Assembly: GCA_040830705.1 (NCBI GenBank)
Contig: JBFOME010000004.1
Coordinates: 3,283-67,282, forward strand
Length of the DNA: 64,000 nucleotides
Reading direction: 5' to 3'
Origin: Paracoccaceae bacterium
Lineage (GTDB): Bacteria > Pseudomonadota > Alphaproteobacteria > Rhodobacterales > Rhodobacteraceae
Shown here: one piece after another, positions 24,344-64,000 of the stretch
Position numbering within the stretch: the first letter of the stretch is position 1
Layout of the letters: each line of letters starts with the position of its first letter
Notes under the pieces: generated by a model
Told to the model about the DNA's origin: nothing
Seen by the model: only the letters and a program-made list of their open reading frames with translations
The model's database searches: none
Position numbers and translations under genes: made by a program

Positions 24344-24422
24344 GGTGTGTTTCCCGTCTAATCTCTGCCTAAAGCCGCCGGTTTGATTTGACCAATGACA
24401 GTTTTTTCGCAATTGATGCGTT

Positions 24423-26523: not shown

Positions 26524-26589
26524 GACGCTCTCCATTGTATGCCTTTGTATACCAAAGGCGCGCCGCATATTCAAGCGGTGCCCGTGCCT

Positions 26590-30529: not shown

Positions 30530-30571
30530 GGGAGCCGCTTTCCGTCAGTGAGAATTGTAAATCGAAATGGT

Positions 30572-30597
30572 GGCAGCCCCGGTCAATCGAGGCTGCC
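30572..30597 (-). terminator. Hairpin between tctC and tctA
   Basis: GGCAGCC-N12-GGCTGCC just downstream of the binding-protein stop. Confidence 0.4.
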
Positions 30598-30609
30598 CAA
30601 GCCCGGCGC

Positions 30610-31698
30610 TCAGTTCAGCTCGACACCATAGGCGTCCTTGAGCCAGCCAAGAACAAACTGCTTGGCCCCGTCCTGAACGCTGGTTGCCGTTTCCAGAGCG
30701 GCCTGCGAGCCGTCGCCGACAAAGACCGGGTATTTGCCCACGCGCTTCGACGAAATCTCGGCGAAGTCAGGGCGCTCGATCACTGCCTGGAAGGCGGCAG
30801 TATACGTATCGACCACATCCTGCGGCGTGTCGCCGGGCAGGAATGCCAGCTTTTGAACCGGGAAACCGGCCACAAAGAAGGCTTTCCACGCATCCCATTG
30901 CTCGCCCGAGGTTTCGCAACCCTCGGTCGCCTCACAGACTTCCTTGAAACTTGGAATATCCGGGAAGGTCGGATCGCGCACGATGTTGCCATCTGCATCC
31001 AACGCGCCCCAGGTCATCATCGGAACGGCCTGTCCGGCCTCGACCAACGGCACCGAGCCGCCCAAATAGCCTGATGAGGTCTGATAGTCGATTGTCGCTT
31101 CGCCCCGCTCGAACATAAGGCGACCGTCGCCACGCCCCTTGATGCCAAAGACTGGCTCGACATTCATGCCCAGCATCTGCCAGGCCAGCAGCGGCACCAG
31201 ATCAAGCCGCGTCGCCCCCTGGCTGCCATAGATAAAGTTCACATCTTTCAGGTTGTTGGCTGAACCATCGAACTTGGCCCCATCATCGGCGTTCAGATAG
31301 GCAACGCCACCGGTGCCCGACGCCATGACAGGAATCCATTCCTTGTATTCATAGCGGACCCGAGGATCGTTCAGCAGATAGGGGAATTGGGTCGACCCGG
31401 ATGTTCCAAAAAGCAGCGTGCCGTCGTCATGGTTCTGCTCTTGAAACCAGTTCGCCCCCTTGGTCGAGCCCGCACCCGGCATGAATTTGACCACCACGGT
31501 CGGCTGACCCGGCAGTTCCTCGGACAAGAGCGGGGCAAAGAAATTCGCCCATTTGGCCGACCCGCCAGTTTCGGAAAATGGAATCACCCACTCGATGGTC
31601 TTGCCTGAAAAATCGACCTCGGCTGCGGCAGGTGCCGCAATCCCGGCAGCCGCGATCAGCGATATCACCGCGCGGCGCGTGAAAACAGAAACGGTCAT
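30610..31698 (-). CDS. tctC: TTT substrate-binding protein (TctC/Bug family)
   Basis: Signal peptide FTRRAVISLIAAAG, IEWVIPFSETGGS, MPGAGS; GGGAGG RBS before ATG 31698. Confidence 0.88.
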   Translation of the reverse strand: MTVSVFTRRAVISLIAAAGIAAPAAAEVDFSGKTIEWVIPFSETGGSAKWANFFAPLLSEELPGQPTVVVKFMPGAGSTKGANWFQEQNHDDGTLLFGTSGSTQFPYLLNDPRVRYEYKEWIPVMASGTGGVAYLNADDGAKFDGSANNLKDVNFIYGSQGATRLDLVPLLAWQMLGMNVEPVFGIKGRGDGRLMFERGEATIDYQTSSGYLGGSVPLVEAGQAVPMMTWGALDADGNIVRDPTFPDIPSFKEVCEATEGCETSGEQWDAWKAFFVAGFPVQKLAFLPGDTPQDVVDTYTAAFQAVIERPDFAEISSKRVGKYPVFVGDGSQAALETATSVQDGAKQFVLGWLKDAYGVELN

Positions 31699-31803
31699 TA
31701 TGTCCTCCCTGGTGACCAACAACCAGTCCGGCTCCTCCGATCCCGACTTGGCTGTTCCTGCATACGGGGTTGATTCCCCCTGCGATCTGCCAATCATGGT
31801 GTT

Positions 31804-31825
31804 CCAACCTTGCGCCAAGCTTGCG
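31804..31825. promoter_or_regulatory. 11-bp tandem direct repeat, candidate TctD (OmpR-family) binding site
   Basis: CCAACCTTGCG CCAAGCTTGCG (10/11 identical) between divergent tctC and tctD. Confidence 0.55.
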
Positions 31826-31834
31826 GGAGCTGAA

Positions 31835-32503
31835 ATGCGGATCGTCATCATCGAGGATAACGAGGCGTTGGCAAATGCCATAGCCTACCGTCTGCGTGAT
31901 CGGGGACACTCGGCGGACGTGTTGCATGATGGTCAGGAGGCCGACGCATTTCTGGCGCGCGAAGGTGCGGATCTGGTGGTGCTGGACATCAATCTGCCCG
32001 GACGATCCGGCTTCGATATCCTGCGCGCAATGCGTGACCGCGAGGACAATGCCCCGGTTATTCTGTTGACGGCGCGCTCGGAAACCAGCGACCGCGTGGC
32101 CGGTCTGGACATGGGTGCCGATGACTATCTGGTCAAACCGTTCGAGATGGACGAGTTGGAGGCGCGCATTCGTGCCCTGTCGCGCCGTAAAAGCCTGGAC
32201 TATGGCGCGCAGGAACAAATTGGCGGGCTGGAATTCGACCGAAACACGCGCGAGATAAAGGCCGAAGGCGTGGCGCTGGACGTTCCTCGCCGCGAACTGG
32301 CGGTGCTGGAATGTTTGCTGGAACGCCGCGGGCGCATCGTATCCAAGGCGCAACTAACCGATCATGTCTATGGCGTCGGGGCGGATGTGGATGATACGGC
32401 TGTCGAGCCACATGTCTCGCGCCTGCGCAAGAGACTTGGTGCTTTCGGCATTTCGATCAAGACCGCGCGCGGACTGGGATACATGCTGGAGGTCGCGGTC
32501 TGA
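31835..32503 (+). CDS. tctD: OmpR-family response regulator TctD
   Basis: MRIVIIEDN, LVVLDINLPG, GADDYLVKPF, winged helix KTARGLGY; start placed at ATG 31835. Confidence 0.88.
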   Translation: MRIVIIEDNEALANAIAYRLRDRGHSADVLHDGQEADAFLAREGADLVVLDINLPGRSGFDILRAMRDREDNAPVILLTARSETSDRVAGLDMGADDYLVKPFEMDELEARIRALSRRKSLDYGAQEQIGGLEFDRNTREIKAEGVALDVPRRELAVLECLLERRGRIVSKAQLTDHVYGVGADVDDTAVEPHVSRLRKRLGAFGISIKTARGLGYMLEVAV

Positions 32504-33864
32504 TGCGCCGCGCTTCCCTGCGGCTTCGCCTTTTTGTCCTGATCCTCAGCCCGCTGGTCGTGATGGCCGTCATATTGGGCTATTGGCGCTTTACGGTCGC
32601 CCAACGCACCGCCGAAGACCTTTTCGACCGCGGCCTATTGGCCGCCGCTCTCGCAATATCACGCGATGTGGCCGTGTCCGGCGGTGATGCCTTGTCTCCT
32701 TCGACCCGCGATTTGATACGGGACGCAGCGGGGGGAGAGGTGTTTTATCATGCCACGGGCCCCGGCGGCATCTACATCACCGGTTATGCTTACCCGCCAA
32801 AATCCTCCCGGTCGGAGGAGGCCGATTTTTACGCGCCCCACTTCTTCGAAGCGACCTATCGAGACGAGGAAGTGCGGGTGTTAAGGATCAGGGAGCGGGT
32901 GACGATCGAGAATCTGACCGGCGATGCTTCGGTCAAGGTGTGGCAACGGATCGAGGATCGACAGCTGTTTGCCCGCCAACTTGCGGTGCGCGCAGCCGCG
33001 CTGATCGGCACACTGCTTGCAACGCTTGCGCTGGTCGTCTGGTTCGGAGTGGCACGTGGTCTGCGGCCGCTGATCGATCTGCAGGATGCGATTGCGGCGC
33101 GATCACCAAATGACCTGAGCCAGATAAAGCGCCCGGTGCCTATCGAGGTGAGCGGCATTGTTCGAACGTTGAACCATCTGTTTGGCAAGGTAGAGGCCAG
33201 CATCGACGCCCATCAGGTCTTTATTTCGGACGCCGCGCATCAGCTGCGCAACCCGGCGGCTGCCGTTCAATCCATGGCCGAAGCGGTGCGCGATGCGCCC
33301 TCTGCCAAAGACAGAAACAAGCGGATATCCGAACTGGTCAACGCCGCCCGCGGTTCCGCCCGTGTCGCCGATCAGCTCTTGTCGCTCGACCGTCTGCAAC
33401 AATCCGCGATGGCACCGGATCTTGAGCCCGTCGATCTTCGAGATGTCGTTCAGGACATTTGCGCTGAGTTCGGGCCAACTATTCTCTCACGCGGGCTCGA
33501 GTTCGAATTCAACGCGCCGGATTACCCAATAAATGTATCCGGAGACCGGCTGTTTCTTACCGAAGCAATCAAGAACCTGATCGACAATGCGTTAAAGCAT
33601 GGTGGCCCTGATCTGACCCAGATCGCCGTAAACATCACGCATTCGAATGGCGACGCTATCGTTACGATCAAGGATGATGGCAAGGGCCTCAAGCCCGAGC
33701 AAAGCGAAACCGCGTTCGGCCGCTTCTCGCAGGTGGAACCCTCCGACGGCAGTGGCCTTGGGCTGGCGATTGCAATGTCGGTCGCTGAGCGACATGGCGG
33801 CAGACTGGTCATTGATCGGGTCACGAAAGGCGCGAGTATTTCGCTTCATACACCGACACTGTAG
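32503..33864 (+). CDS. tctE: Sensor histidine kinase TctE
   Basis: AEDLFDRGLLAAALAI sensor region, DAAHQLRNP (phospho-His), NLIDNALKH, DDGKG, GSGLGLAI. Confidence 0.88.
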   Translation: MRRASLRLRLFVLILSPLVVMAVILGYWRFTVAQRTAEDLFDRGLLAAALAISRDVAVSGGDALSPSTRDLIRDAAGGEVFYHATGPGGIYITGYAYPPKSSRSEEADFYAPHFFEATYRDEEVRVLRIRERVTIENLTGDASVKVWQRIEDRQLFARQLAVRAAALIGTLLATLALVVWFGVARGLRPLIDLQDAIAARSPNDLSQIKRPVPIEVSGIVRTLNHLFGKVEASIDAHQVFISDAAHQLRNPAAAVQSMAEAVRDAPSAKDRNKRISELVNAARGSARVADQLLSLDRLQQSAMAPDLEPVDLRDVVQDICAEFGPTILSRGLEFEFNAPDYPINVSGDRLFLTEAIKNLIDNALKHGGPDLTQIAVNITHSNGDAIVTIKDDGKGLKPEQSETAFGRFSQVEPSDGSGLGLAIAMSVAERHGGRLVIDRVTKGASISLHTPTL

Positions 33865-50966: not shown

Positions 50967-53342
50967 ATGAAAACCCTATGCCACTGGGTGTTTGAAGAGC
51001 AGAGCGCAAACAGCTTTATGCTACGGATTGAGGGCTGCCATCTATTGCGCGTCGAGATTCTTGAACATGATCTGGCGCGGATCCGCCTGTTGAAGGAGGG
51101 CACATACCGGTTGGATCGCAGTTGGACCGTCGCACCCGAAGGCGATGTGCCCTGGGAGGGGCGCGCGCGCGATGCAATAAGCGGGTTTTCCTGCCCCGAC
51201 GTGCTGGTTGATGGGCCGATGCTGGAGACCGACCATCTGCGCCTGACGGTGCTCACGCCACTGGCGCTGCGTTGGGAGTGCCGCACCGACCCGGACGCGC
51301 CCTGGGTTCCGCTGGCCGAGGATCGCACCACCGGGGCCTATATGCTGGGCAGACGCGACAATCGCGTCTCGCATTTCATGCACCGGTTCCCCGGCGAGCG
51401 ATATTTTGGGCTGGGCGAAAAGGCAGGACCCTTGGAGCGGGGCGGCAAACGCTATGAGATGCGCAATCTCGATGCGTTGGGATACGATGCGCGCAGCACC
51501 GATCCGCTCTATAAACATTTCCCCTTCACGATCACCGAACGTCCGGGGGCGGGCGCGATGGGGCTGTTCTATGACAACCTGTCGAGCAGTTGGTTCGATC
51601 TGGGCAACGAGCATGACAACTATCACGCCGCGTTCCGAAGCTGGCGGGCCGAGGACGGGGATCTGGACCTCTATCTCAGCTGGGCACCAGATGTGCGCGG
51701 TGTGGTCAAGCGGCAGGTCTGGCTGACCGGCGGCACCGCGTTCATGCCGCGCTGGGGGCTTGGCTATTCGGCGTCCTCCATGGCCTATACCGACGCGCGG
51801 GACGCGCAGGACCAGATGGGCGGGTTTCTGGCGCGCCTGCGGGCCGAGGATATCCCCTGCGACAGCTTCCAGATGTCCTCGGGCTATACCTCGATCGATG
51901 GGAAGCGGTACGTGTTCAACTGGAACACGGACAAGTTCCCCGACATGAAGGGGCTTGCGGCAGCGTTTGAGCAGGATGGCATCCAACTAATTGCCAATAT
52001 CAAACCGGTGATGTTGGACGATCACCCGAAATACGTCGAGGCGGCGGAGCAAGGTCTGTTCCTGCGTGACAGCGAAACCGGGCTGCCCGAAGTGTCGGCC
52101 TTTTGGGACGGGCAGGGCAGTCACCTGGACTTCACCAATCCCGACACCATCCGCTGGTGGCAGAACGGCGTCACCACGGCGCTGCTGGAACAGGGCATTG
52201 GCCATACATGGAATGACAATAACGAGTTCGAGGTCTGGGACGATGCCTGCCCCGCTAACGGCTTTGGTACGCCAATTGAGATCGCACAGATCAGGCCATT
52301 GATGAGCCAGCTCATGACCCGCGCTTCGCATGAGGCGCAGATTGCGCATAACCCGGGAAAACGCTCTTACCTGATCTCGCGTTGCGCAGCACCTGGTACC
52401 CAGCGCTATGCTCAGACATGGACCGGTGATAATCGCACCGGCTGGGATACGCTGCGCTGGAACATCCCGATGGGTCTGGGGCTGAGCCTGTCCGGCTTTT
52501 ACAACATAGGACATGATGTGGGCGGTTTCGCCGGTCCCAAACCCGACCCCGAGCTGTTTCTGCGTTGGGTCCAGAATGGCATCTTTCATCCGCGCTTTAC
52601 CATCCATTCCTGGAACGACGACGGCACTGCAAATGAGCCATGGATGTATCCCGAGATTACGCATTTGGTGCGCGACGCGATCCGTCTGCGCTATCGGCTG
52701 CTGCCCTATCTCTACACGCAGCTTTACCGCGCGATACGTGAACATGAGCCGATGCTGCGCCCGCTCTTCCTGGACTATCCCGAGGATCCGGCCTGCCGTG
52801 ATGAGCAATTCGAGTTCATGCTCGGTCCCGACCTTCTGGTTGCCTCTGTGATCGAACCGGAGGCGCGCATCCGCCAGCTTCATCTTCCAGATTGGCCCGG
52901 CGGTTGGTGGCATTACGAGACCGCCAAATGGTACGCAGGCGGAACCGATCTGGACCTGCCGGTGACGCAATCCAGTATTCCGCTCTTCATACGTGGAGGT
53001 GCTGTGCTGCCGCTATCGGATAATACGGTGCGCGCCACGCCTGAGCAGGAGGGGCGTAGGGTCCTGTTGGCTTGCCCGGCACCCGCGGGCGGGTCCGAGG
53101 TCACTTCTTGGGTCTATGACGATGACGGGGATGCCACTGACGCTCCGGCGCGCGATCACTGTCTGGCGCAGGTGTCGCTGTCCTGCGGGCCGGATCTGCC
53201 ACAGCTTGATTGGCGCATATCCGGAACTTATGCCCCTGTTTTCAAACAGGTTGAAGTCAGACATATCGCTGGCACTGAGGTCAATGTCGCGGGGAAGGTC
53301 AGCCCATCCGGCACCATGCATGATTATCGGTCAGACGGGTAA
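50967..53342 (+). CDS. Glycoside hydrolase family 31 (Aec37-like alpha-glycosidase)
   Basis: DPLYKHFPF, SSGYTSIDGKRYVFNWN, nucleophile WNDNNE, acid/base WTGDN, GHDVGGF, RYRLLPYLYT. Confidence 0.92.
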   Translation: MKTLCHWVFEEQSANSFMLRIEGCHLLRVEILEHDLARIRLLKEGTYRLDRSWTVAPEGDVPWEGRARDAISGFSCPDVLVDGPMLETDHLRLTVLTPLALRWECRTDPDAPWVPLAEDRTTGAYMLGRRDNRVSHFMHRFPGERYFGLGEKAGPLERGGKRYEMRNLDALGYDARSTDPLYKHFPFTITERPGAGAMGLFYDNLSSSWFDLGNEHDNYHAAFRSWRAEDGDLDLYLSWAPDVRGVVKRQVWLTGGTAFMPRWGLGYSASSMAYTDARDAQDQMGGFLARLRAEDIPCDSFQMSSGYTSIDGKRYVFNWNTDKFPDMKGLAAAFEQDGIQLIANIKPVMLDDHPKYVEAAEQGLFLRDSETGLPEVSAFWDGQGSHLDFTNPDTIRWWQNGVTTALLEQGIGHTWNDNNEFEVWDDACPANGFGTPIEIAQIRPLMSQLMTRASHEAQIAHNPGKRSYLISRCAAPGTQRYAQTWTGDNRTGWDTLRWNIPMGLGLSLSGFYNIGHDVGGFAGPKPDPELFLRWVQNGIFHPRFTIHSWNDDGTANEPWMYPEITHLVRDAIRLRYRLLPYLYTQLYRAIREHEPMLRPLFLDYPEDPACRDEQFEFMLGPDLLVASVIEPEARIRQLHLPDWPGGWWHYETAKWYAGGTDLDLPVTQSSIPLFIRGGAVLPLSDNTVRATPEQEGRRVLLACPAPAGGSEVTSWVYDDDGDATDAPARDHCLAQVSLSCGPDLPQLDWRISGTYAPVFKQVEVRHIAGTEVNVAGKVSPSGTMHDYRSDG

Positions 53343-53480: not shown

Positions 53481-54623
53481 TCAGTTAGCGGCTGTGTCAC
53501 CGGTGTAGAACACGGTTCCGTCCATGATGCGACGCTGGGTTCGGAACGTGCTGGCCGAGATAGCCTCGGGTCCGTCAGAACCTTGTGAAACATCCGCGTT
53601 GACCGGCAGGACACCAGACGGGTTGCCGATACGCACCGGGCTCGCCGCACCGGCGATCTGGTTTACCAGCGTGCCGGGTATGTGGGCCGCCACGCCAGTA
53701 CACATACCCCCGGTCAGGGTGATCGCGCGATGAGAATTGCCCATCGAAATCAGCCGCACGCCAAGATCGTGACTGTCTGTAACATAGGCGGTGCCATCCA
53801 ATGCAGTGAAAACCGCCGATGCACCGATGATGGCCACCTTTGGGTTGGACAGCGCGACCTCGTCAACGGTCGCGGCCATGCCCATCGCCACCCCTCCAGC
53901 GCGTCGAATAGCCTCCATCCGCGCCATGTAGTCTTCATCCGCATCCAGCTCTTGCGGCAGCTCTGTGGCGGTTTTGCCAAGCGCTTCGGCGCGTACAAAA
54001 ACCACCGGGTTGGCCGCGTCCACCAGTGATGCTTCGATCGATCCCAGCCTCTCGACGGTCAACAGATCTAGTGGATTGCCTGTAGGCAACAGCCGGCCCG
54101 TCGCTGCACCACCCGGTTGCAGAAAATCCAACGTGACCCGCGCGCCGGTGCCGGAAACGCCGGGGATAGTGAAGTCACCCTGCTCGACCGGCTGCCCGCC
54201 CTGAACCGGAAAGCGCGCGTGGTAGATCTGGCCAGTATTGGTGTTGAAGATCCGCACCAGCGCCTCGCCCTCAGGGGAAACCTGAACCAGTCCCTCTTCC
54301 ACCGCAAAGGGACCGACACAAGAAGACATGTTTCCGCAGGCGGAGCCATAGTCAGCCACCGGCTGATCCACCGCGATCTGAACAAAGGTATAATCCACAT
54401 CCGCATCAGCACGGGCTGAGCGCTCGACGATAACGACCTTCGAAAGCGAGGAAATCCCGCCCCCCATGCCGTCTAGTTGCCGCCGGTAGGGATCGGGGCT
54501 GCCCAGCACCTGCAGAAAGATGCGGTCGCGCTCTGCGCGGTCCGAAGGCAGGTCGGCACCATTGAAGACCACCGCTTTCGACGTACCGCCGCGATAGAAG
54601 GCTGCCCTCAAACCCTGCCGCAT
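53481..54623 (-). CDS. PrpF-family isomerase
   Basis: RGGTSKAVVF, GSPDPYRRQLDGMGGGISSLSKV, CGNMSS; variant NPSG and RTQRRIMDG; start at 54623, 1 nt after the aconitase stop. Confidence 0.88.
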   Translation of the reverse strand: MRQGLRAAFYRGGTSKAVVFNGADLPSDRAERDRIFLQVLGSPDPYRRQLDGMGGGISSLSKVVIVERSARADADVDYTFVQIAVDQPVADYGSACGNMSSCVGPFAVEEGLVQVSPEGEALVRIFNTNTGQIYHARFPVQGGQPVEQGDFTIPGVSGTGARVTLDFLQPGGAATGRLLPTGNPLDLLTVERLGSIEASLVDAANPVVFVRAEALGKTATELPQELDADEDYMARMEAIRRAGGVAMGMAATVDEVALSNPKVAIIGASAVFTALDGTAYVTDSHDLGVRLISMGNSHRAITLTGGMCTGVAAHIPGTLVNQIAGAASPVRIGNPSGVLPVNADVSQGSDGPEAISASTFRTQRRIMDGTVFYTGDTAAN

Positions 54624-54624
54624 C

Positions 54625-57216
54625 TTATGCCGCCTCCTTGCCCAAAAACGAGCGGAACGCCATGGGCAATAGCCCGCCATGCGCGAAGGTCTCACGCTCA
54701 CGATCGTTGTAGAGCCGCAGGTCAAGCGGTGTCTGAGCGCTTGTGCCATCCATGCGGTGGATGGTCAGCTGCGCCTGTGTCAGGTCGTCGGACAGGGTGA
54801 TGTCATAGGTTTCAGACCCGTCCAAACCCAGCGTCTCGCGCGTCACACCCTCGGAGAAACAAAGCGGAGCGATGCCCATATTCACCAGGTTCGAACGGTG
54901 GATGCGCTCGAAGCTTTCGGCGATCACCGCGCGGATGCCCGCAAGCCACGGGGCCTTGGCGGCCGTGTCGCGGGATGAGCCGCAGCCATATTCCTTGCCG
55001 CCGATCACCACCAGTTGCTGGCCGCGCTCCAGATAGGTCTGGATCGCTTTGAACACAGTTGTGACATCGCCCTCGGGTTCGATCCGGGTCCAGGAGCCTT
55101 CCTTGCCCGGCACCATCTCGTTGCGCAGGCGGTAGTTGGCGAAGGTCGAGCGAATGATCACATCGGAACAGCCCCGGCGCGTGCCGAAAGAGTTGAAGTC
55201 ACGCGGCTCAACACCGTTGGCGATCAGGAACTGACCCGCCTCGGATTCGGGCGTGATCGTGCCCGAGGGCGAGATGTGATCGGTCGTGACCGAGTCGCCC
55301 AGGATCACCAGAGGCCGCAAGCCGGTCAGCGGGGCGACGCCCGAATGATCTGCGCGGATCGACTTCACGAAGGGCGGAAAGCTGACATAGGTGCTGGGCA
55401 CCCAGTCATAGCTGCCTGTGCCGACCTCCAGCGCGGTCCATTCGTCGTTCACCTCTCCGATCGCATTGAAATTGCTGATAAAATCATCTGCTGTCACATA
55501 GGTGTTGATGATCTCGTCCACCTCCTGCGCGGATGGCCAAAGATCGGTGAGCGTAACTGGATTACCCTGCGCGTCCGTACCAAGCGCATCCTGGCTGATA
55601 TCCTTCAGGATCGTGCCCATCAGCGCATAAGCCACCACCAGCGGCGGTGAGGCGATCATGTTGCGCGAGGCCAGCGGATGGATGCGGCCCGCGAAGTTAC
55701 GGTTGCCCGAAAGCACCGCGACACCCTTCACGTCATGCGCCTTGATCGTCGCCTCATGCTCGGGACGCAGGGGGCCAGACATGCCATTGCAGGTCGAGCA
55801 GGAAAAGGCTGCGACCTCAAAGCCAAGTTTGTCCAAATCCTCCTGCAAGCCGCTGTTCTTGAGATACCGCGCGACCACCCGCGAGCCTGGCGCAAGCGAG
55901 GTCTTTACATGTGGCTTCACGCTCAGGCCGCGCGCCACGGCATTGCGAGCGATCAACCCGGCCAGGATCATGTTGCGCGGATTGGCGGTGTTGGTGCAGC
56001 TGGTTACCGCGGCGATGATCACGTCACCATCGCCAATATCATGGCTCGCACCCTCGACCGGCACGCGGCGGGCGGTTTCGACCTCGTCCTGTAGAGCGAG
56101 CGTCCGGGTGGCCTTGTCCAGATCGATCCGCTGTTCGGGCCGCGAGGGGCCAGAGACGGAACGGCCAATGGCGCTCAGGTCCAGCGTGACCACCTGATCG
56201 TATTCGATCCGTGCATCGACACCCTCGGACCACATCTGCTGCGCCTTGCAATAGCTTTCGGTGTTGCGGATCGTCTCAGCACTGCGCCCTGTCTCGCGCT
56301 GGTAGCGGATCGTGTTGGCATCGACCGGGCAGAACACCTGGGTCGAGCCATATTCGGGTGACATATTGGCGATGGTGGCGCGGTCAGCGACGCTCAGCCG
56401 ATCATAGCTGGCCCCGAACATCTCGACAAACGTATCCACCACGCCCAAGGCGCGCAGCTTTTCAGCAACGACGAGCGCCACATCGGTGGCAGTGATGTCA
56501 TGCGAGGGGTCGCCGATCACTTCCAGCCCGATCACGCGCGGCACGTTCACGGCGGTGGTTTCGCCGAACAAGAGCCCCTCGGCCTCGAGCCCGCCGATAC
56601 CCCAGCCGGTGATGCCAAGCGCATTGATCATGGTGGTGTGGCTGTCAGTGCCAAGGCAGCTATCGGGGATCAGCACCTGTGCGTCCTCGTTCGAGGGCAA
56701 CACGGTCTGGCCGAGGAATTCCAGATTGACCTGATGGCAGATGCCGCCGCCGGGCGGGATCACGCGCAGACGCGGGAAACGCGTTTCGCAGGCCTTGAGA
56801 AACGCAAACCGCTCGCGGTTCACTTCGAACTCGCGGGTCATGTTCTTTTCCAGCGCAAACCGCTCGGCCCAGTGGTTGATCGTCATCGCATGGTCGATCA
56901 CCAGATCGACCGGCAAGCTCATGTCCACATCACCTGGATCGCCGCCGTGATCCTCCAGAATGTTACGCATCGCCATGATGTCCACGAGGGCGGGAATGCC
57001 CAGCATGTCATGCAGCAGCAGGCGGGCGGGGCGGAACGGTACGGCGTCGCCCTTGCGATCAGCCACCAGTGCGGCATCTGCTCCGCCCTCGGAATGGCGC
57101 GCGGCGTTTTCCGCCAGCACCCGCAGAGAATAGGGAAGGGTGGTCAGCCTCTCGCCCAACCCTTGCGCATAGTCGATTGCCTGAAACCCTGTGCCTGCCA
57201 CATCAAAGTATCGCAC
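54625..57216 (-). CDS. Divergent aconitase-family hydratase (AcnD/AcnA-like)
   Basis: LPYSLRVLAEN, HQVNLE, GTDSHT, AVTSCTNTANP, CSTCNGMSG (three Fe-S Cys), SGNRNF, GSSRD, FERIHRSNL. Confidence 0.9.
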   Translation of the reverse strand: MRYFDVAGTGFQAIDYAQGLGERLTTLPYSLRVLAENAARHSEGGADAALVADRKGDAVPFRPARLLLHDMLGIPALVDIMAMRNILEDHGGDPGDVDMSLPVDLVIDHAMTINHWAERFALEKNMTREFEVNRERFAFLKACETRFPRLRVIPPGGGICHQVNLEFLGQTVLPSNEDAQVLIPDSCLGTDSHTTMINALGITGWGIGGLEAEGLLFGETTAVNVPRVIGLEVIGDPSHDITATDVALVVAEKLRALGVVDTFVEMFGASYDRLSVADRATIANMSPEYGSTQVFCPVDANTIRYQRETGRSAETIRNTESYCKAQQMWSEGVDARIEYDQVVTLDLSAIGRSVSGPSRPEQRIDLDKATRTLALQDEVETARRVPVEGASHDIGDGDVIIAAVTSCTNTANPRNMILAGLIARNAVARGLSVKPHVKTSLAPGSRVVARYLKNSGLQEDLDKLGFEVAAFSCSTCNGMSGPLRPEHEATIKAHDVKGVAVLSGNRNFAGRIHPLASRNMIASPPLVVAYALMGTILKDISQDALGTDAQGNPVTLTDLWPSAQEVDEIINTYVTADDFISNFNAIGEVNDEWTALEVGTGSYDWVPSTYVSFPPFVKSIRADHSGVAPLTGLRPLVILGDSVTTDHISPSGTITPESEAGQFLIANGVEPRDFNSFGTRRGCSDVIIRSTFANYRLRNEMVPGKEGSWTRIEPEGDVTTVFKAIQTYLERGQQLVVIGGKEYGCGSSRDTAAKAPWLAGIRAVIAESFERIHRSNLVNMGIAPLCFSEGVTRETLGLDGSETYDITLSDDLTQAQLTIHRMDGTSAQTPLDLRLYNDRERETFAHGGLLPMAFRSFLGKEAA

Positions 57217-57287
57217 GTCTCACCCTCCGGTCGTTTACGCGATAGAGCTAGACAATCCACCCCCAACCCCGCAAGGTCGCAGAGAGT

Positions 57288-57308
57288 GCGTTTCACCAGA
57301 GAGAACAC
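57288..57308. promoter_or_regulatory. Candidate IclR operator 1
   Basis: GCGTTTCACCAGAGAGAACAC, imperfect palindrome immediately before the iclR ATG; 17/21 match to the reverse complement of site 2. Confidence 0.65.
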
Positions 57309-57977
57309 ATGTGCGCCACCAGAACGGAATCGGTTGAACGGGCAATGTCGATCCTCAACGCGTTCTCCGCCCAGCAACCTGAGATGACGCTGGCGCAACT
57401 TGCCGAGGAAACTGGCCTGCACAAGAGCACGATCCTGCGGCTGACCAATTCGATGGCGATCTACGGCTTCATCCAGCGCGACAAAGCAGGTGTGTTCAGC
57501 GTTGGTCCCAGTGTCTGGCGGCTGGGCCTGATCTTCCGCCGAGACTTCACAAGGCGTGAGCATCTGGCGCCTGCCTTGCGCATGCTGGCCGAGGCGACGG
57601 GAGAGACCGCCTCATTCTATGTGCGCTCGGGCAATGAAAGGGTCTGCCTTTACAGGGAAAACTCGCCCAACCTGTTGCGGTTCCATGTGGAGGAGGGGAT
57701 GCGGCTGCGCCTGTCCACGGGCGCGTCGGGCATGGTGCTCCGCCATTTCAGCGGCGAGGACGTGGGCGATACCAGTGGGTTCAATGCGGCAGGCACAACA
57801 ATGTCAGTTGGGGAGACCAATCCAAACATCTCTTCCGTTTCGACACCGGTCTTTTCCCGCGAAGGCGCATTGCAGGGCGCCCTGACGGTCTCTGGCCTGG
57901 CCAGTCGGTTCGACGAAGAAGCCCGCAAGGCAGTCGTGCCGCTGCTGGAAAGCCTCGCAAGGTCGCTTTCTGCTTAA
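57309..57977 (+). CDS. IclR-family transcriptional regulator
   Basis: SVERAMSIL, LAQLAEETGLHKSTILRL HTH, ATGETAS, GASG, GALTVSG. Confidence 0.92.
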   Translation: MCATRTESVERAMSILNAFSAQQPEMTLAQLAEETGLHKSTILRLTNSMAIYGFIQRDKAGVFSVGPSVWRLGLIFRRDFTRREHLAPALRMLAEATGETASFYVRSGNERVCLYRENSPNLLRFHVEEGMRLRLSTGASGMVLRHFSGEDVGDTSGFNAAGTTMSVGETNPNISSVSTPVFSREGALQGALTVSGLASRFDEEARKAVVPLLESLARSLSA

Positions 57978-57998
57978 GCGTTCTCCCTGACGAAACGC
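57978..57998. promoter_or_regulatory. Candidate IclR operator 2
   Basis: GCGTTCTCCCTGACGAAACGC (reverse complement GCGTTTCGTCAGGGAGAACGC), 80 nt upstream of the ICL-family lyase ATG. Confidence 0.65.
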
Positions 57999-58077
57999 GA
58001 TTTCCGTCACCTTGATGCCGGGCAGGGGCAGCCGCTAGATACCCGGGATCAATGACTGCGCTCAAGGGAGCCCCACA

Positions 58078-58947
58078 ATGCTGACACATGAGATCAACAA
58101 AGCCTTTCGCGAGCGTCTGAACACGGGCCGCGCGGTGCTGATGCCCGGCGCGGCCAACGCGCTTGCGGCGCGGGTGATCGAGGATCTGGGCTTCGAGGCG
58201 ATCTATATCTCGGGTGCCGGCGTGACCAACACGTTCTATGGCATGCCCGATCTGGGCTTCATCAACTTGACCGACATCGCTCAGCATTGCGCCGCCATCC
58301 GCAATACCAGCGACCTGCCGATCGTGGTGGATGCCGATACCGGTTTCGGCAACGCGCTGAATGTGCATCACACAGTGCGGATGCTGGAGCGGGCAGGTGC
58401 CAGCGCCATCCAGCTGGAAGACCAGGTGAACCCCAAGCGCTGCGGGCATTTCTCAGGCAAGGACGTAGTTGGACTTGATGAGGCACGGGGCCGGATCAAG
58501 GCGGCTGTCGACGCGCGGCAGGACCCGAATTTCATGATTGTCGCCCGCACCGACGCCCGCGCAACCACCTCGCTGGATGAGGCGTTGGACCGGGCGGCGG
58601 CGTTCATCGAGGATGGCGCGGATATCACCTTTGTCGAAGCGCCGGTTTCGGCGGATGAAATCCGAGAAATCCCCCGCCGCCTGCAAGGCACGCCGCAACT
58701 GGTCAACCTGGTGGTCGGCGGCAAAACCCCGATCCTTGGCTTCGACGAGTTGGATGAGATGGGTTTTGGCCTAGTGCTCTACGCCAACGTCGCGTTACAA
58801 GGCGCGCTCTACGGCATGGTCAACGCCTTGTCGCAACTGAAATCAGAAGGGATCATGACCGAGGATGGCCCGCTTGCGGGCTTCCAAATGCGGCAGGAGG
58901 CGGTGCGCAAGGACTACTACGACGCATTGGAGCAAAAATACACCTGA
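58078..58947 (+). CDS. ICL/PEPM-family lyase (methylisocitrate or dimethylmalate lyase-like)
   Basis: YISGAG, GMPDLG, VDADTGFG, QLEDQVNPKRCGH catalytic loop, VARTDA. Confidence 0.88.
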   Translation: MLTHEINKAFRERLNTGRAVLMPGAANALAARVIEDLGFEAIYISGAGVTNTFYGMPDLGFINLTDIAQHCAAIRNTSDLPIVVDADTGFGNALNVHHTVRMLERAGASAIQLEDQVNPKRCGHFSGKDVVGLDEARGRIKAAVDARQDPNFMIVARTDARATTSLDEALDRAAAFIEDGADITFVEAPVSADEIREIPRRLQGTPQLVNLVVGGKTPILGFDELDEMGFGLVLYANVALQGALYGMVNALSQLKSEGIMTEDGPLAGFQMRQEAVRKDYYDALEQKYT

Positions 58948-59792: not shown

Positions 59793-60788
59793 CTAAACTC
59801 TTTTGCTAGAGGCCAGATCTTTGGATTGCTCTAGCTCCACGCTATGGTTTCCGATTTTCCCCATATGACGCGCAATTTGTTGTGCCAGTATCTGTTTGCA
59901 CAATTCCGCGACGGCCGCTGGGAGGCCCCGCAACTCCTCTTTCCTAGCAACAACCGTCAACGTGCGCGACAACCCTGAGACTGGCAGTTCTTGAAATCGC
60001 AGGTTCATGTTTTCCACGAGACCATCGATCAATAATGTCGGTGTCAAAAGGCTAAATCCCTGTCCTATCGAAACACAGGAGGTCACCATACTGGAGCGAT
60101 CTGCTTGTATGACTGTGTCGGGCTCAAACCGCAGTCGGCGCAGATGCTGGGCAATCTGCCGTCCCGCATTTGTCGTATCCCCAAAACGTACCAACGGAAG
60201 CCTCGTCTGGATCGCTTCTAGGCTTTCGGTCGGGCCGTCGTATGTTTCGGGGAGCACCAAAAGGTATCTCTCAGTCAGAACATGATGACGCTCCAATCCG
60301 TCCATGTCTAAAAATGGGTTCGACGTAATCGCCAAATCCGCCTGCTTGGTGCGCAGCAGATGCTCATGATTACCGCTTTGCCCGGCATGCAGAGTGATGT
60401 CTTCGACGTTGAACACCCTTTGCGCAAGATCGATCAATGATGGCGTCAGGGTCGTCGCAATGGAGGCTTGGATGCCCACCCTCAGCAGCGTCAGGGATTG
60501 TTCGCCGACATGCCGCAATTCGGTTTCCATATCGGACAGTGCATCCAGTATCTTCTGCGCTTTGCCATGCAGTCGCGCACCAGCATATGTTAGCCGAGCA
60601 GGTCGCGTACTGCGATCGAGCAGAGTCGTGCCAAACGCTTTCTCCAACGCAGTGATGTGTTGGGATGCTGCGGGCTGTGAGAGACCGAGCAGTTTCGCAC
60701 CGGCTCGCATTTGACCTGTTTCTGCAACCGCAACGAAAACCTCTAACGAGCGCATGAGACTCGGTGAAATCTTGTGGCGATCGAGCAC
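59793..60788 (-). CDS. LysR-family regulator
   Basis: LEVFVAVAETGQMRAGAKLLGLSQPAASQHITALE HTH; divergent from mttB. Confidence 0.88.
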   Translation of the reverse strand: MLDRHKISPSLMRSLEVFVAVAETGQMRAGAKLLGLSQPAASQHITALEKAFGTTLLDRSTRPARLTYAGARLHGKAQKILDALSDMETELRHVGEQSLTLLRVGIQASIATTLTPSLIDLAQRVFNVEDITLHAGQSGNHEHLLRTKQADLAITSNPFLDMDGLERHHVLTERYLLVLPETYDGPTESLEAIQTRLPLVRFGDTTNAGRQIAQHLRRLRFEPDTVIQADRSSMVTSCVSIGQGFSLLTPTLLIDGLVENMNLRFQELPVSGLSRTLTVVARKEELRGLPAAVAELCKQILAQQIARHMGKIGNHSVELEQSKDLASSKRV

Positions 60789-60867
60789 GACTCATCCTTA
60801 GTATAAATTTTTCTGATACTATTTGGTTTTTCTTGGGTTCCGTCAATCGCTGCGGCACCATGGGTAT

Positions 60868-62397
60868 ATGTCACGCCCACGTACATCTCGTCGCCAAAAA
60901 GCTTCAGCCAAACACACCCAAGATGAGGCTCGTGCGCCTTTCATTCTTCGCAAGCTTTCGACCTTCAATGTACTCAGCGACGCCGGGCTAGAACAGATCG
61001 AGTCAAATGCGGACACCATCCTTGCCGAAACCGGGATGGAGTTTCAGGACGACCCCGAAATCCTCCGGATATTCACTAATGCAGGTTGCGATGTGGATGG
61101 CACCCGAGTTCGGTTTCCTACGGGCTTCTGTCACAGGAAGATTACCGCCACGGCGCCGGGCCAGTTCACGCAGCATGCCCGCAACCCCAAGAACAGTGTG
61201 CAGCTTGGCGGGGAAGCGACGGTTCTTTGCCCATCTTGGGGGCCGCCTTTCGTACATGATCTGGATCGCGGTCGGCGCTATGCGAATTACGAAGACTTCA
61301 CCGATTTGGTGAAATTGCACCACACTTTACCGTGGCTGCATCATTCGGGCGGCGTAGTTTGTGAACCCGTTGATCTTCCCGCCAATAAGCGTCATCTGGA
61401 TATGCTCCACGCCCATATTCGGTACTCTGACCGCGCGTTCATGGGCGCCTTTATCGGGGCCGAGCACGCAGGCCACGCAATCGACATAGCACGGATCGTT
61501 TTTGGCGACGAATTCGTGGCAGAAAACCCGGTACTCTATTGCGTGTCCAACACAAACGCGCCCTTGGTGATGGATAGCCACATGTCGGGCGCGCTGAAAA
61601 CCTATGCGCGGGCGGGGCAGCCTGTGGCCTGCACACCTTGGGTGCTGACAGGGGCGATGTCGCCGGCGACGGTCGCTGGGACACTCGCGCAAGTGCTGGC
61701 CGAAACCATGGCGACGATGACTCTTACCCAACTGGTGAACCCGGGCGCGCCATGCCTGATGGGCAGCTTTGCATCGACCATGTCAATGAAGTCCGGCGCG
61801 CCGACCTTTGGAACGCCAGAGGCAGGGTTGATGGTTCTGGCGGCCGGGCAGCTTGCGCGCAGGCTTGGAGTGCCGTTTCACACCGTGGGCACTCTCAGTT
61901 CGTCCAAACTGCCCGACGCGCAAAGCCAGCAAGAGGCCGCTTGGGGCCTAATGATGTCGATGTTTGCCGGTGCCAATCTGATCAACCATGCGACTGGCTG
62001 GCTCGAAGGGGGGCTGGTGACCTCGTTTGAAAAAACCGTGATTGATCATGATCTTTGCGGCAAGATCGGGCGCTTCTTTGATGGGATCGACATGAGCGAG
62101 AATGCGCAGGCAATGGAGGCGATTGCCAGGACTGGGCCGGGGCAACACTTCCTTGGGTCTGAACATACGCAGGCCAATTTCATGACCGCGCTCTTCCGCC
62201 CGTGGACACCTGATGACAATTCGTTCGAACAATGGCACGCGGCTGGCGAACAGGATGCCGCTGCGCGGGCCAATGTTATCTGGAAGGAACGTTTGGCAGG
62301 ATATAAAGACCCCGGCCTCGACCCCGACGTAGATGCGGCCCTGAAAGACTACATCGCCGCGCGCAAGGCCGAAAAACCAGATCAGGACTATTTCTGA
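60868..62397 (+). CDS. MttB-superfamily methyltransferase, non-pyrrolysine (second paralogue)
   Basis: GPPFVHDLDRGRR, CEPVDLP, GAMSPATVAGTLAQ, KSGAPTFGTPE, GTLSSSKLPDAQ, GWLEGGL; Leu at the Pyl-equivalent position. Confidence 0.93.
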   Translation: MSRPRTSRRQKASAKHTQDEARAPFILRKLSTFNVLSDAGLEQIESNADTILAETGMEFQDDPEILRIFTNAGCDVDGTRVRFPTGFCHRKITATAPGQFTQHARNPKNSVQLGGEATVLCPSWGPPFVHDLDRGRRYANYEDFTDLVKLHHTLPWLHHSGGVVCEPVDLPANKRHLDMLHAHIRYSDRAFMGAFIGAEHAGHAIDIARIVFGDEFVAENPVLYCVSNTNAPLVMDSHMSGALKTYARAGQPVACTPWVLTGAMSPATVAGTLAQVLAETMATMTLTQLVNPGAPCLMGSFASTMSMKSGAPTFGTPEAGLMVLAAGQLARRLGVPFHTVGTLSSSKLPDAQSQQEAAWGLMMSMFAGANLINHATGWLEGGLVTSFEKTVIDHDLCGKIGRFFDGIDMSENAQAMEAIARTGPGQHFLGSEHTQANFMTALFRPWTPDDNSFEQWHAAGEQDAAARANVIWKERLAGYKDPGLDPDVDAALKDYIAARKAEKPDQDYF

Positions 62398-63134
62398 TGG
62401 GCCTGACTTTCCGCAATCTCGCGCATCCGAACATAGAACGGCACGTGATGCGCAGTTATGTCGGTGTAGGGCTCACCGAGCTGGTCAAGCTCCGCATGGA
62501 AGTCGAATATTTCAGGAGCTTTGATCGCGCCGCTTTGCAGCACTTCGGTGTGCCAGCTTTGCACGGAACACCATCCATCCGGCACAGTGTCGTTCCAGGT
62601 GAATGCCTGGTCCAGGAACGCAAGCCCGGCATGCGCCCAGTAGCGGCGCAACGCAGTTTGCGGATCGTTGCGCAACTGATCTGCAGTGATCACCAACGGG
62701 GTATGTCCCAGCTCGGTCAATGCGCCATAAAGCCTGTATTGCGCCTCATGCCCCAACTCCAATCGCGTGAATTGCGGGTCACGTTTTGCATAAGACAGCG
62801 CAGCTTCGATGGGGTTGCGCACCAGAAAGGCATGGGACATTTCGCCCGCAGACCCTGCGTCGCGCGACAACCGGTCCGCGACGTAATAGGCCATATCCTT
62901 GAAAAAAACCGGGCCGCTCTGTGCTGTTTCGCGGATCATTGCGCGGATCTCATCATAGGTGACGGGATGTCCCGGTTCTGGCGAGAAGCCCGGAAAAAGC
63001 CGGTCTGTGGTCGTCAGGTAGTGGTGATACATGAACGGTTCGTGCTGGACCGACAGATCGCCACGCTCACGCATGATCCGTTCAAACGCCGTCGAAACCG
63101 AGCACGGTTGGCACCACAAAGCATGTATCCTCAT
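62388..63134 (-). CDS. Sulfotransferase-like P-loop protein
   Basis: LWCQPCSVSTAFERIMRERGD, HEPF, FFKDMAYY, FLVRNP, W...WH; family normally reads P-R-S at the N-terminal motif. Confidence 0.75.
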   Translation of the reverse strand: MRIHALWCQPCSVSTAFERIMRERGDLSVQHEPFMYHHYLTTTDRLFPGFSPEPGHPVTYDEIRAMIRETAQSGPVFFKDMAYYVADRLSRDAGSAGEMSHAFLVRNPIEAALSYAKRDPQFTRLELGHEAQYRLYGALTELGHTPLVITADQLRNDPQTALRRYWAHAGLAFLDQAFTWNDTVPDGWCSVQSWHTEVLQSGAIKAPEIFDFHAELDQLGEPYTDITAHHVPFYVRMREIAESQAHQK

Positions 63135-63181
63135 CCGGTTAGCCTAACGACGACTGAAAGCTTGCCTCAACGGAGGCTTGT

Positions 63182-64000
63182 ATGAGCCGCAAATTGATCA
63201 TCGGCGGCGGAGCGATCGGTCTCAGCGTGGCTTATCATTTGGCAAAACGCGGCGCGCAGGACGTGACTCTGCTGGAACGCAACCAGCTGACGTCGGGCAC
63301 CTCTTGGCATGCGGCCGGGATTGTGGGGCCTCTGCGCGCAACGCCCAATATGACTACGCTCGCCTCTGCGGCGCTGGAGGTCTTTCCCGCGCTGGAGGCT
63401 GAAACCGGTATGTCCACCGGATATCGCCGCACTGGGGGGTATTGGTTGGCGCGCGAACCGGCGCGGCTGGATGAACTGCACCGGATTGCCGACTTGGGTG
63501 CGACGCAATGGCTGACGCCAGCGGTAATTGCTGCAGGCGAAATACACATGCCCCTGCTCGATCTGTCAGAGCATGTCGGAGCTTTGCATGTGCCCGAAGA
63601 CGCCAATGTGAACCCGGTGGACCTTTGCATGGCATATGCCCGTGCCGCAAAGAACCTCGGCGTAACGATCCGTGAAGGGATTGAGGTCAAAACCGTTGTC
63701 ACAAAAAACGGGATAGCCGAGGGCGTGGCACTTGCTAGCGGCACTACTTTGGAGGCCGACCAGGTCGTCATCGCCACAGGAGCCTGGTCGCGAGAGCTGG
63801 CTGCGACGGCCGGGGTTGCGCTGCCGCTTCAAGCGGTTGAGCACATGTATGTCGTGACAGAAACCATCCCCGATCTACCAGACCCCTTCCCCGTGATCCG
63901 CGATCTGGATCGCGGCATCTATATCAAGGGAGATGCCGGAAAACTGGTGATTGGCGGCTTCGAACCGGACGCCAAATGTTGGAACCCATACGGGCCGGAA
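63182..64000 (+). CDS. GcvT-family FAD oxidoreductase (sarcosine/dimethylglycine dehydrogenase-like), partial at right edge
   Basis: Not in the ORF track. Manual translation: MSRKLIIGGGAIGLSVAYHLA...LLERNQLTSGTSWHAAG...VNPVDLCMAYA...ATGAWS...VEHMYVVTE...IRDLD; open to base 64000. Confidence 0.9.
   Translation, partial: MSRKLIIGGGAIGLSVAYHLAKRGAQDVTLLERNQLTSGTSWHAAGIVGPLRATPNMTTLASAALEVFPALEAETGMSTGYRRTGGYWLAREPARLDELHRIADLGATQWLTPAVIAAGEIHMPLLDLSEHVGALHVPEDANVNPVDLCMAYARAAKNLGVTIREGIEVKTVVTKNGIAEGVALASGTTLEADQVVIATGAWSRELAATAGVALPLQAVEHMYVVTETIPDLPDPFPVIRDLDRGIYIKGDAGKLVIGGFEPDAKCWNPYGPE

Follow-up and report, generated by a model that had tools for sequence, protein, structure and literature searches.

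A predicted IclR-controlled aconitase, PrpF-like isomerase and lyase module of a Paracoccaceae bacterium, related to the methylcitrate pathway

RESULTS

Four neighboring genes form a conserved unit

We analyzed a 64,000-nucleotide stretch of a Paracoccaceae bacterium genome (assembly GCA_040830705.1, contig JBFOME010000004.1, positions 3,283 to 67,282 of the forward strand), here called the window. At positions 53481 to 58947 it carries four neighboring genes in two divergent units: prpF-like, acn (aconitase), iclR, and a lyase gene. We refer to these as the module. A first-pass annotation, made from the letters alone, had described an IclR-linked set of aconitase, PrpF, and isocitrate lyase (ICL)-family lyase, and our open reading frame (ORF) calls and family models confirm that set. 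All of the motifs it listed are present in the translated ORFs, at the protein positions given below. Related loci are numbered with L and contigs of the same genome with C.

53481-54623, minus strand: PrpF-like isomerase gene; 380 amino acids (aa); PF04303, 379 bits
54625-57216, minus strand: aconitase gene (acn); 863 aa; AcnA subfamily model NF006757, 1057 bits
57290-57306, plus strand: operator-like site 1, GTTTCACCAGAGAGAAC, in the divergent spacer between acn and iclR
57309-57977, plus strand: iclR; 222 aa; HTH_IclR PF09339, 57 bits; IclR_C PF01614, 58 bits
57980-57996, minus strand: operator-like site 2, GTTTCGTCAGGGAGAAC, in the spacer from the iclR stop to the lyase start
58078-58947, plus strand: lyase gene; 289 aa; PEP_mutase, 148 bits

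The acn gene starts with GTG, preceded by a GGAGGG ribosome-binding site. The ATG of the prpF-like gene lies 1 nucleotide past the acn stop codon, and the two genes overlap in L008 and in L010 to L012; the pair is predicted to be translationally coupled. A longer, 422-aa prpF-like ORF overlapping acn was rejected as unsupported because the starts in relatives either align with the ATG of the 380-aa ORF or overlap the acn stop.

At 222 aa, the IclR protein is shorter than usual. It contains both IclR domains and reaches no equivalog model. It is 76 to 92% identical in all related loci, where its gene always lies between acn and the lyase gene. The 17-bp pattern GTTTCNNCAGNGAGAAC has two matches in the window, compared with 0.02 expected, and the 3.9-Mb genome has no further exact match. 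Site 1 ends 2 bases before the iclR ATG, and a related site is found at the same place in L003 to L012. An equivalent of site 2, with more mismatches, is present in most related loci that cover the iclR-lyase spacer.

The order of lyase gene, iclR, and divergent acn and prpF is kept at 72 to 93% protein identity. The taxa that keep it are Ruegeria, Boseongicola, Roseibium, Epibacterium ulvae, Antarctobacter, and several metagenome-assembled genomes (MAGs), including one of the Geminicoccaceae; in total, the four-gene unit is kept in about 20 genomes. Because this synteny is kept and the operator is shared by both promoter regions, we regard the module as a real coregulated unit with a shared predicted operator, one site per promoter region. 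The alternative is that there is no joint pathway and that the aconitase is a spare isoenzyme of the tricarboxylic acid cycle, for example a stress-resistant one, with unrelated neighbors. Two aconitases are common in bacteria, and the module has no adjoining transporter here. However, the synteny extends across several alphaproteobacterial families, acn and prpF appear to be coupled, both promoter regions share the operator, and the same family trio is found again in Rhodococcus (see below). This alternative is hardly credible.

An ortholog is present in all five species of the same GTDB genus but in only 1 of 200 other genera of the family. None of 400 sampled Alphaproteobacteria genomes carried one; that search returned only housekeeping AcnA at no more than 50% identity. 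Orthologs are present in the Stappiaceae and Geminicoccaceae, and the lyase alone has more than 120 clusters at at least 74% identity, mostly from marine metagenomes. The module is rare, patchy, and evidently mobile, and its distribution suggests horizontal spread among marine bacteria. This gene set was not described in the full-text literature that we searched.

Partial versions were also seen. On the Pseudorhodobacter contig L009, only iclR and acn precede the contig end. Cognatishimia sp. (L077, 5581-9876) combines iclR and the lyase gene with an intact aconitase gene (77% identity, uncalled in the source table) and has no adjoining PrpF-like gene. In a Paracoccus MAG (L072, 4340-5209), the lyase gene stands alone among sugar metabolism genes.

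The three enzymes fall outside AcnD, PrpF, and PrpB

As methylcitrate references we used ten genuine prpB-prpC-acnD-prpF operons from other Pseudomonadota. In maximum-likelihood trees, all three module proteins lie outside the genuine AcnD, PrpF, and PrpB clades, in agreement with the earlier proposal of a separate pathway.

The aconitase scores 773 bits with the AcnD model TIGR02333, for which the cutoff is 1420 and genuine AcnD proteins score 1475 to 1829. It lies right at the threshold of the AcnA equivalog TIGR01341 (945.1 bits; cutoff, 945) and passes the AcnA subfamily models (1057 against 686 for NF006757, and 1034 against 905), and its scores with the LeuC and LeuD models are far under their cutoffs. 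It is 44% identical to the housekeeping AcnA of its own genome (896 aa, contig C11) and 43 to 45% identical to AcnD of the genuine operons. In the tree, AcnD (10 rows), AcnA (30 rows, all housekeeping alphaproteobacterial sequences), and the module aconitases (11 rows) form separate clades, each with 100/100 support, and the module stem has a length of 1.67. By these comparisons, the module aconitase is a third clade of monomeric Fe-S aconitase, neither AcnA nor AcnD. Its motifs lie at the following protein positions.

69-73, HDMLG; 108-112, DHAMT; 191-198, DSHTTMIN
473-481, CSTCNGMSG; 679-683, TRRGC; 747-754, SSRDTAAK

The first-pass annotation had read these motifs as a mixture of AcnD-like, AcnA-like, and unusual ones, and alignment with 10 AcnD and 30 AcnA sequences bears this out. 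His69 (Gln in AcnA) and CSTCNGMSG are common to AcnD and DSHTTM is common to AcnA, while DHaMtINHWA, TRRGC, RDTAAK, and LRLYN belong to the module clade. The three cluster Cys and the D-H, D-S-H, N-R..R, RRG, and S-S-R residues align with those of human IRP1, AcnA, and AcnD. The only change among the active-site residues relative to IRP1 is that of Gln to His69, as in AcnD, and the enzyme looks catalytically competent. The Arg of RRG aligns with IRP1 R699, which we take to be the residue that binds the third carboxylate. Set against what is established about aconitase active sites, these aligned residues together speak for a tricarboxylate substrate.

The PrpF-like protein scores 317 bits with the prpF model TIGR02334 and 302 bits with the 4-oxalomesaconate tautomerase model (cutoff, 440 in both cases), and it is 38 to 43% identical to PrpF of the genuine operons. 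Its nearest relatives outside the module clade are 48 to 54% identical, against 40 to 44% for true PrpF. In the PrpF tree, the module clade (support, 99) stands apart from 12 true PrpF proteins (support, 100), which it joins before 3-methylitaconate isomerase (Mii) with a support of 85; Mii and YbhH lie further out. The tree was built without TarA, TbrA, and Adi1, which are proven aconitate isomerases. The catalytic Lys (SLSK62) and Cys (AC96GN) are kept in all module members and correspond to K73 and C107 of Shewanella oneidensis PrpF (SoPrpF), both of which were shown to be essential (PMC5690661). The annotated replacement of HPSG and RTARR by NPSG (positions 334-337) and RTQRR (361-365) was found in our sequence as well. 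The His of HPSG is N or T throughout the module clade, and RTQRR and HRAITLTG are the clade's own motifs.

The lyase falls below both prpB models (278 against 354 for TIGR02317 and 244 against 353 for NF008455) and matches the isocitrate lyase model TIGR01346 in the catalytic-loop region only, at 62 bits against 276. It is 37 to 45% identical to genuine PrpB and lies outside PrpB in a module clade with 100/99 support and a stem of 2.06. Its best match among solved structures is the carnation petal death protein (2.9e-57); methylisocitrate lyases and 2,3-dimethylmalate lyase come next. In the tree, however, the petal death protein is remote, with an end branch of 3.4 to 3.7. The lyase is thus best described, from its scores and position, as a C-C lyase of the ICL/PEP-mutase superfamily that is neither PrpB nor ICL. 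It is the sole member of that superfamily that tblastn with the lyase found in the genome. Its motifs, at the following protein positions, keep the Mg-binding residues and the gating loop.

85-89, DADTG; 113-116, LEDQ; 120-124, KRCGH (as first annotated)

R157, F185/E187, N210, L234, and R272 are also kept. At three other positions the lyase has V212, A236, and Q241, where all 12 aligned proteobacterial PrpB proteins have T, P, and R. All three module enzymes thus appear competent for catalysis, though their pockets are altered. The database names of the lyase relatives listed are all generic or homology based, and none comes from a tested function.

The module is related to the methylcitrate pathway but lacks a synthase

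We searched the whole genome (91.7% complete) for PrpC and found only GltA (331 bits, compared with a cutoff of 421) and a citryl-CoA lyase-like fragment. PrpC was also not found in 11 other module-bearing genomes, so that it is missing in all 12 examined. The first-pass annotation had proposed such a genome check for prpC. The locus itself also has no prpC; the prpF-like gene follows acn as in an AcnD-type operon, but the lyase gene is placed divergently, behind iclR.

The module shares much with the AcnD/PrpF methylcitrate cycle, such as that of S. oneidensis (PMC5690661). The same three families are present, and acn precedes prpF and is coupled to it. Conserved residues include the PrpF Lys and Cys, the aconitase Fe-S ligands, the KRCGH loop of the lyase, and, in common with AcnD, the His-for-Gln change and the CxTCNGMSG motif of the aconitase. 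It differs in that PrpC is missing, the proteins are below the equivalog cutoffs and in separate clades at 37 to 45% identity, the regulator is of the IclR type, the lyase gene is divergent from acn-prpF, and there is a link to the importer TctCBA (see below); the lyase also lacks the T212, P236, and R241 of PrpB. On these sequence comparisons, the module is clearly related to, but distinct from, the methylcitrate pathway.

This led us to weigh whether the module could be a PrpC-less branch of that pathway that removes or salvages 2-methylcitrate. The compound would arise as a side product of housekeeping citrate synthase from propionyl-CoA, or would be imported, and may be a diastereomer that the standard enzymes cannot use. 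AcnD-like dehydration, a PrpF-like double-bond shift, rehydration by an aconitase, and cleavage by the lyase would then yield pyruvate and succinate. Since the module-bearing genomes examined all lack PrpC, 2-methylcitrate that forms in them would otherwise have no way onward; the window also carries meaB, which fits a methylmalonyl-CoA route for propionyl-CoA. The gene order and coupling, the AcnD-like aconitase motifs, and the joining of the PrpF-like clade with true PrpF before Mii are all in keeping with such a branch, as are the F, L, and A of the lyase at the presumed C2-methyl pocket of PrpB (see Discussion). However, the three proteins are far under the equivalog cutoffs and on long separate stems, and the lyase lacks the PrpB-invariant T212 and R241 although the leaving group would still be succinate. 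The operonic TctCBA, CoA-transferase, and citryl-CoA lyase genes described below suit a growth substrate better than detoxification, and the module is found in 1 of 200 other genera of the family, while propionyl-CoA metabolism is presumably common. A 2-methylcitrate branch is therefore, in our judgment, unlikely.

The same three superfamilies act in the nicotinate fermentation of Eubacterium barkeri, where Mii, DmdAB, and Dml isomerize, hydrate, and cleave by retro-aldol reaction. The hydration step of that pathway uses a LeuCD-type enzyme of two subunits and has a dicarboxylate as its substrate. A similar route in the module would run from methylitaconate through dimethylmaleate and 2,3-dimethylmalate to pyruvate and propionate. 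The PrpF-like protein matches Mii nearly as well as it matches PrpF (4.4e-78 and 1.3e-77, respectively), and 2,3-dimethylmalate lyase is a solid match to the lyase, whose NLVVGGKTP loop resembles that of the petal death protein. The latter is a broad-specificity 2-alkylmalate lyase and oxaloacetate hydrolase (PDB 1zlp); it has in common with the module lyase the N-x-(V/I)-x-G-G-K-T-P and K-(R/K)-C-G-H loops, but it is without the PrpB-typical Arg of the C-terminal Q-x-R, which the module lyase has. In one relative, Rhodobacteraceae bacterium Alg231_04 (L008), the genes 3' of the lyase gene are of a kind typical of branched C5-dicarboxylate breakdown.

Against this dicarboxylate route, the module hydratase is a single 863-aa chain of the AcnA/AcnD type with tricarboxylate-binding aconitase residues, including the RRG Arg that aligns with IRP1 R699, and not a LeuCD/DmdAB pair. 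The importers linked to the module are of the tripartite tricarboxylate transporter (TTT) type, and the L008 neighbors occur at that one locus only. No other nicotinate pathway genes were found in the window or in the neighborhoods of the relatives examined. We consider such a route very improbable, and the close analogy with nicotinate fermentation that was first drawn is unlikely to hold for a monomeric, tricarboxylate-type aconitase.

The L008 genes (2266-6132) directly follow the lyase gene on the same strand, and their products are an acyl-CoA dehydrogenase, a family III CoA-transferase, a MaoC/FAS1-type hydratase, and an HpcH/CitE-type lyase. Sets of this kind typically serve the breakdown of itaconate, methylsuccinate, or mesaconate via CoA esters.

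Relatives link the module to a tricarboxylate importer

The TctCBA importer adjoins the unit in 8 of about 10 informative loci outside Ruegeria, mostly just downstream of prpF. In L006, L011, L073, L075, and L076 the tctCBA genes follow prpF immediately and on the same strand; in L008 and L012 they adjoin the unit, accompanied by genes for a TctD/E-like two-component pair and an extra binding protein; and in the Geminicoccaceae MAG L071, two copies flank the unit on both sides. In L009 a TRAP transporter gene lies beside iclR instead. L011 has a major facilitator superfamily (MFS) gene after tctCBA, and no MFS gene directly adjoins the unit. The genome analyzed here has its own tctCBA ortholog (83 to 93% identical) on contig C8, with TctD/E-like genes. 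Because the module is repeatedly joined to this importer, an externally supplied acid, as the first-pass annotation had supposed, is the natural reading. The closest solved structures were uninformative about the ligand of TctC.

Further genes point to citrate-type chemistry. In L006 and L073 the operon runs on with genes for a family III CoA-transferase and a 265-aa protein that matches the citryl-CoA lyase model (453 bits against a cutoff of 261), a pair that would amount to an ATP-independent citrate lyase-like route. The L073 and L076 operons also contain an RraA-type gene, whose family includes oxaloacetate decarboxylases and HMG/CHA aldolases. Together, the pair and the RraA-type gene may be taken to point to chemistry of the citrate type. 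We found no paper on the CoA-transferase/citryl-CoA lyase-like pair.

The pair was located at L006 8153-10152, at L073 1-1684, and in the genome analyzed here at C10 69296-71370 (L074 7297-9371), where it stands alone after a cyclase-like gene. The citryl-CoA lyase-like protein is 265 to 273 aa long and has only the C-terminal citrate synthase domain. In L071 (3781-5261), genes for a GD_AH-type dehydratase large subunit and a separate SAF-domain small subunit lie between one tctCBA copy and the module. We take such split large and SAF subunits to be the arrangement of the sulfolactate sulfo-lyase SuyAB and its relatives.

Looser versions of the gene set accompany the nearest relatives of the PrpF-like protein. 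On a Shinella plasmid the context is tcuB-tcuA / acnA-...-prpF-CoA-transferase, and on a Hydrogenophaga plasmid it is tctC-tcuA-leuC-leuD-tctC-prpF. Plasmid pLP414 of Rhodococcus opacus (L080, CP128997.1 116908-134059) carries a GntR gene and genes for an ICL/PEP-mutase lyase, AcnA, a citrate:H+ symporter, a Usp protein, an AbrB-like membrane protein, a PrpF-like protein, TctB, and TctA. The pLP414 lyase (40 to 42%) and PrpF-like protein (48 to 50%) are nearer to the module proteins than to PrpB or PrpF. The recurring theme in these versions seems to be uptake of a citrate- or aconitate-type acid, an aconitase, a double-bond isomerase, and often a lyase, and pLP414 suggests that the aconitase/PrpF/lyase trio is an old, recurring functional combination. 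The aconitase in Shinella and Rhodococcus is an ordinary AcnA (59 to 67% identical to AcnA references).

These observations bear on whether the module is a new route for a substituted or unusual tricarboxylate, such as an alkyl-, hydroxy-, or carboxy-substituted aconitate or citrate, or homoaconitate, with coevolved active sites. The deep private clades would fit, with clade-specific changes at or beside conserved active-site motifs in all three enzymes; so would the rare, patchy distribution, which is typical of a niche substrate, the silence of the searched literature on this gene set, and the generic or homology-based names of the lyase relatives. However, no accessory enzyme for an extra substituent is consistently linked to the module. 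The looser versions of Rhodococcus and Shinella have ordinary AcnA partners, which suggests that the wider PrpF-like subfamily needs no more than plain aconitate chemistry. TctCBA with TctD/E is, moreover, the gene arrangement of the classical citrate-type system. We hold a substituted substrate to be rather unlikely. A pathway of this kind would be a third lineage of a coevolved AcnD-PrpF-PrpB trio, with its own IclR sensor and a TctCBA importer. The substrate would then be neither aconitate nor a standard methylcitrate intermediate; conceivable, though again rather doubtful, candidates are an alga- or invertebrate-derived substituted aconitate or citrate and the "wrong" diastereomer of 2-methylcitrate.

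A second tricarboxylate island lies in the window

The first-pass annotation stated that the window holds no PrpC, PrpD, or PrpE, and this is correct. Its picture has to be amended, since tcuAB, a second PrpF-family gene, and a TTT transporter gene are present at 21.9 to 33.9 kb. The features of this island (21907-33864) are listed here.

21907-23004, minus strand: tcuB; TIGR02484, 332 bits against a cutoff of 247
22961-24430, minus strand: tcuA; NF006130, 671 bits against a cutoff of 369
24423-25316, plus strand: divergent LysR gene
27402-28475, minus strand: second PrpF-family gene; passes the 4-oxalomesaconate tautomerase model (462 against 440); 50% identical to Escherichia coli YbhH
28499-30529, minus strand: TctA protein gene, 676 aa
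30610-31881, minus strand: 423-aa ORF without a family match
31553-33864, plus strand: TctD/E-like two-component pair

Genes for a 2-hydroxyacid dehydrogenase and a Usp protein also lie in the island. By its gene content it looks like a locus for uptake and conversion of tricarballylate or aconitate, in which the isomerase is annotated for a lignin pathway reaction.

Genes flanking the module

The module is flanked by GH31 glycosidase, PAP2 phosphatase, LysR, and MttB genes, which are unrelated to it. The GH31 gene, which is alpha-glucosidase or xylosidase-like (50967-53342), lies between the prpF-like and PAP2 phosphatase genes. It was rejected as a module member: it is missing at this position in the three closest Ruegeria loci (L003 to L005), and for that reason it appears to be a lineage-specific insertion beside the module. 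On the other side (59793-64000), a LysR regulator gene is divergent from one for an MttB-superfamily methyltransferase (PF06253, 653 bits; under the trimethylamine equivalog cutoff), followed by a 262-aa ORF without a family match and a gene for a DAO-type FAD oxidoreductase. This group resembles a quaternary amine demethylation cluster.

DISCUSSION

The module is most likely a self-contained, IclR-controlled catabolic unit for a tricarboxylic acid of the aconitate or citrate type. More specifically, we propose that it breaks down an aconitate-type tricarboxylate taken up from outside, trans-aconitate being the leading candidate, and we give this reading a probability of about 45%. The acid would enter by the TctCBA-type importer, whose genes are on contig C8 here and in or beside the operon in most other genera. 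The PrpF-like enzyme would carry out a 1,3-allylic or cis-trans shift of an aconitate-type double bond, the conversion of trans- to cis-aconitate being the leading possibility. Hydration of the product by the dedicated aconitase would give an isocitrate-type 2-hydroxy acid, or else citrate, and the lyase would cleave the hydroxy acid in a retro-aldol reaction to a 2-oxo acid (glyoxylate or pyruvate) and a succinate-type acid. IclR would bind both promoter regions, each at its 17-bp site, and would respond to the substrate or to an intermediate. What we infer here is in which order the steps run, which acid is the substrate, what the lyase releases, and which effector IclR senses.

Part of this reading was already contained in the first-pass annotation, which proposed an orphan pathway for an externally supplied, not yet assigned di- or tricarboxylate. 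An orphan, externally fed pathway of the tricarboxylate type stands. The dicarboxylate part is unlikely, given the monomeric AcnA/AcnD-type hydratase, the Arg and Ser residues that align with IRP1, and the tricarboxylate-type transporters. "Not yet assigned" may be too strong, as the leading candidate, trans-aconitate (or aconitate derived from tricarballylate), is a known compound; the PrpF-like relatives at 48 to 54% identity sit with tcuAB, acnA, and citrate transporters.

A related known system is the tricarballylate system tcuRABC of Salmonella, in which TcuA oxidizes tricarballylate to cis-aconitate. It resembles the module in feeding aconitate into metabolism, and relatives of the PrpF-like protein lie beside tcuA or tcuAB in Hydrogenophaga and Shinella; the module differs in having no flavoprotein. 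Aconitate isomerases are proven in the PrpF superfamily, namely, SoPrpF (PMC5690661) and TarA and TbrA (PMC11495376). In Bacillus velezensis, trans-aconitate is assimilated through the tar system, composed of the LysR-type regulator TarR, the PrpF-superfamily isomerase TarA, and the MFS importer TarB (PMC11495376). The tar system is an inducible unit around a PrpF-superfamily isomerase and a tricarboxylate importer, as the module would be, although only the isomerase superfamily matches. The tar system combines an isomerase and an MFS importer with a LysR-type activator and relies on the housekeeping aconitase, whereas the module joins IclR to an aconitase and a lyase of its own and, in relatives, to a TTT importer.

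Several observations weigh against trans-aconitate catabolism. From the example of tar, plain trans-aconitate would need only an isomerase and an importer, and a divergent aconitase and a lyase would be superfluous. In Ruegeria, including this genome, no transporter adjoins the module. Our genome-wide operator scan found no further good site, and none at the C8 tctC or C10 CoA-transferase promoters. RNA runs of one mollusc metagenome sample, the sole source of runs with DNA of the locus, contained no words of the locus.

Features of the enzymes add to this. His69 and C-x-T-C-N-G-M of the aconitase are as in AcnD, an enzyme of 2-methylcitrate. We take the C2-methyl pocket of E. coli PrpB to be F186/L234/P236. 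At this presumed pocket the module lyase has F185/L234/A236, compared with F/L/P in methylisocitrate lyase and W/F/T in isocitrate lyase. If the pocket is right, a C2-alkyl substrate and a pyruvate product would be favored over isocitrate and glyoxylate. Together with this presumed pocket, the AcnD-like features of the aconitase would point to a methyl-branched substrate, and the altered C3 pocket of the lyase seems to suit neither isocitrate nor 2-methylisocitrate cleanly.

The island at 21907-33864 is also relevant. It is a simpler set of regulator, transporter, and isomerase genes that could itself serve aconitate or tricarballylate, and because such a candidate lies in the same window, the trans-aconitate reading of the module is slightly weakened. 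Nor does TcuA tie the two together. TcuA is present in 8 of the 12 module-bearing genomes and in 45 of 121 genera of the family without the module (37%); with this genome and G612 left out, the values are 7 of 11 and 44 of 120 (Fisher test, p of about 0.1). We rejected a coupling of TcuA and the module, as the enrichment is not significant. TcuA is common without the module and absent in 4 of the 12 module genomes, and thus the two are not obligatorily coupled.

To our knowledge, only two settings have been described for a trio of aconitase, PrpF, and ICL-family lyase: the methylcitrate cycle and nicotinate fermentation, the latter with a different hydratase. The module represents a third, deeply separated lineage of all three enzymes, with its own regulator and operator, no synthase, and a tie to a tricarboxylate importer. 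It is a clean test case for substrate specificity in AcnA/AcnD-type aconitases and PrpB-like lyases; the literature still asks why AcnD is used rather than some other aconitase (PMC5690661). Cultured strains of Ruegeria, Epibacterium ulvae, Antarctobacter, and Roseibium carry the module, and it could reveal a tricarboxylic acid that host- and alga-associated roseobacters collect from their partners. If the substrate is trans-aconitate, the module would be a fuller version of a known assimilation trait; if it is not, the module would represent a new pathway.

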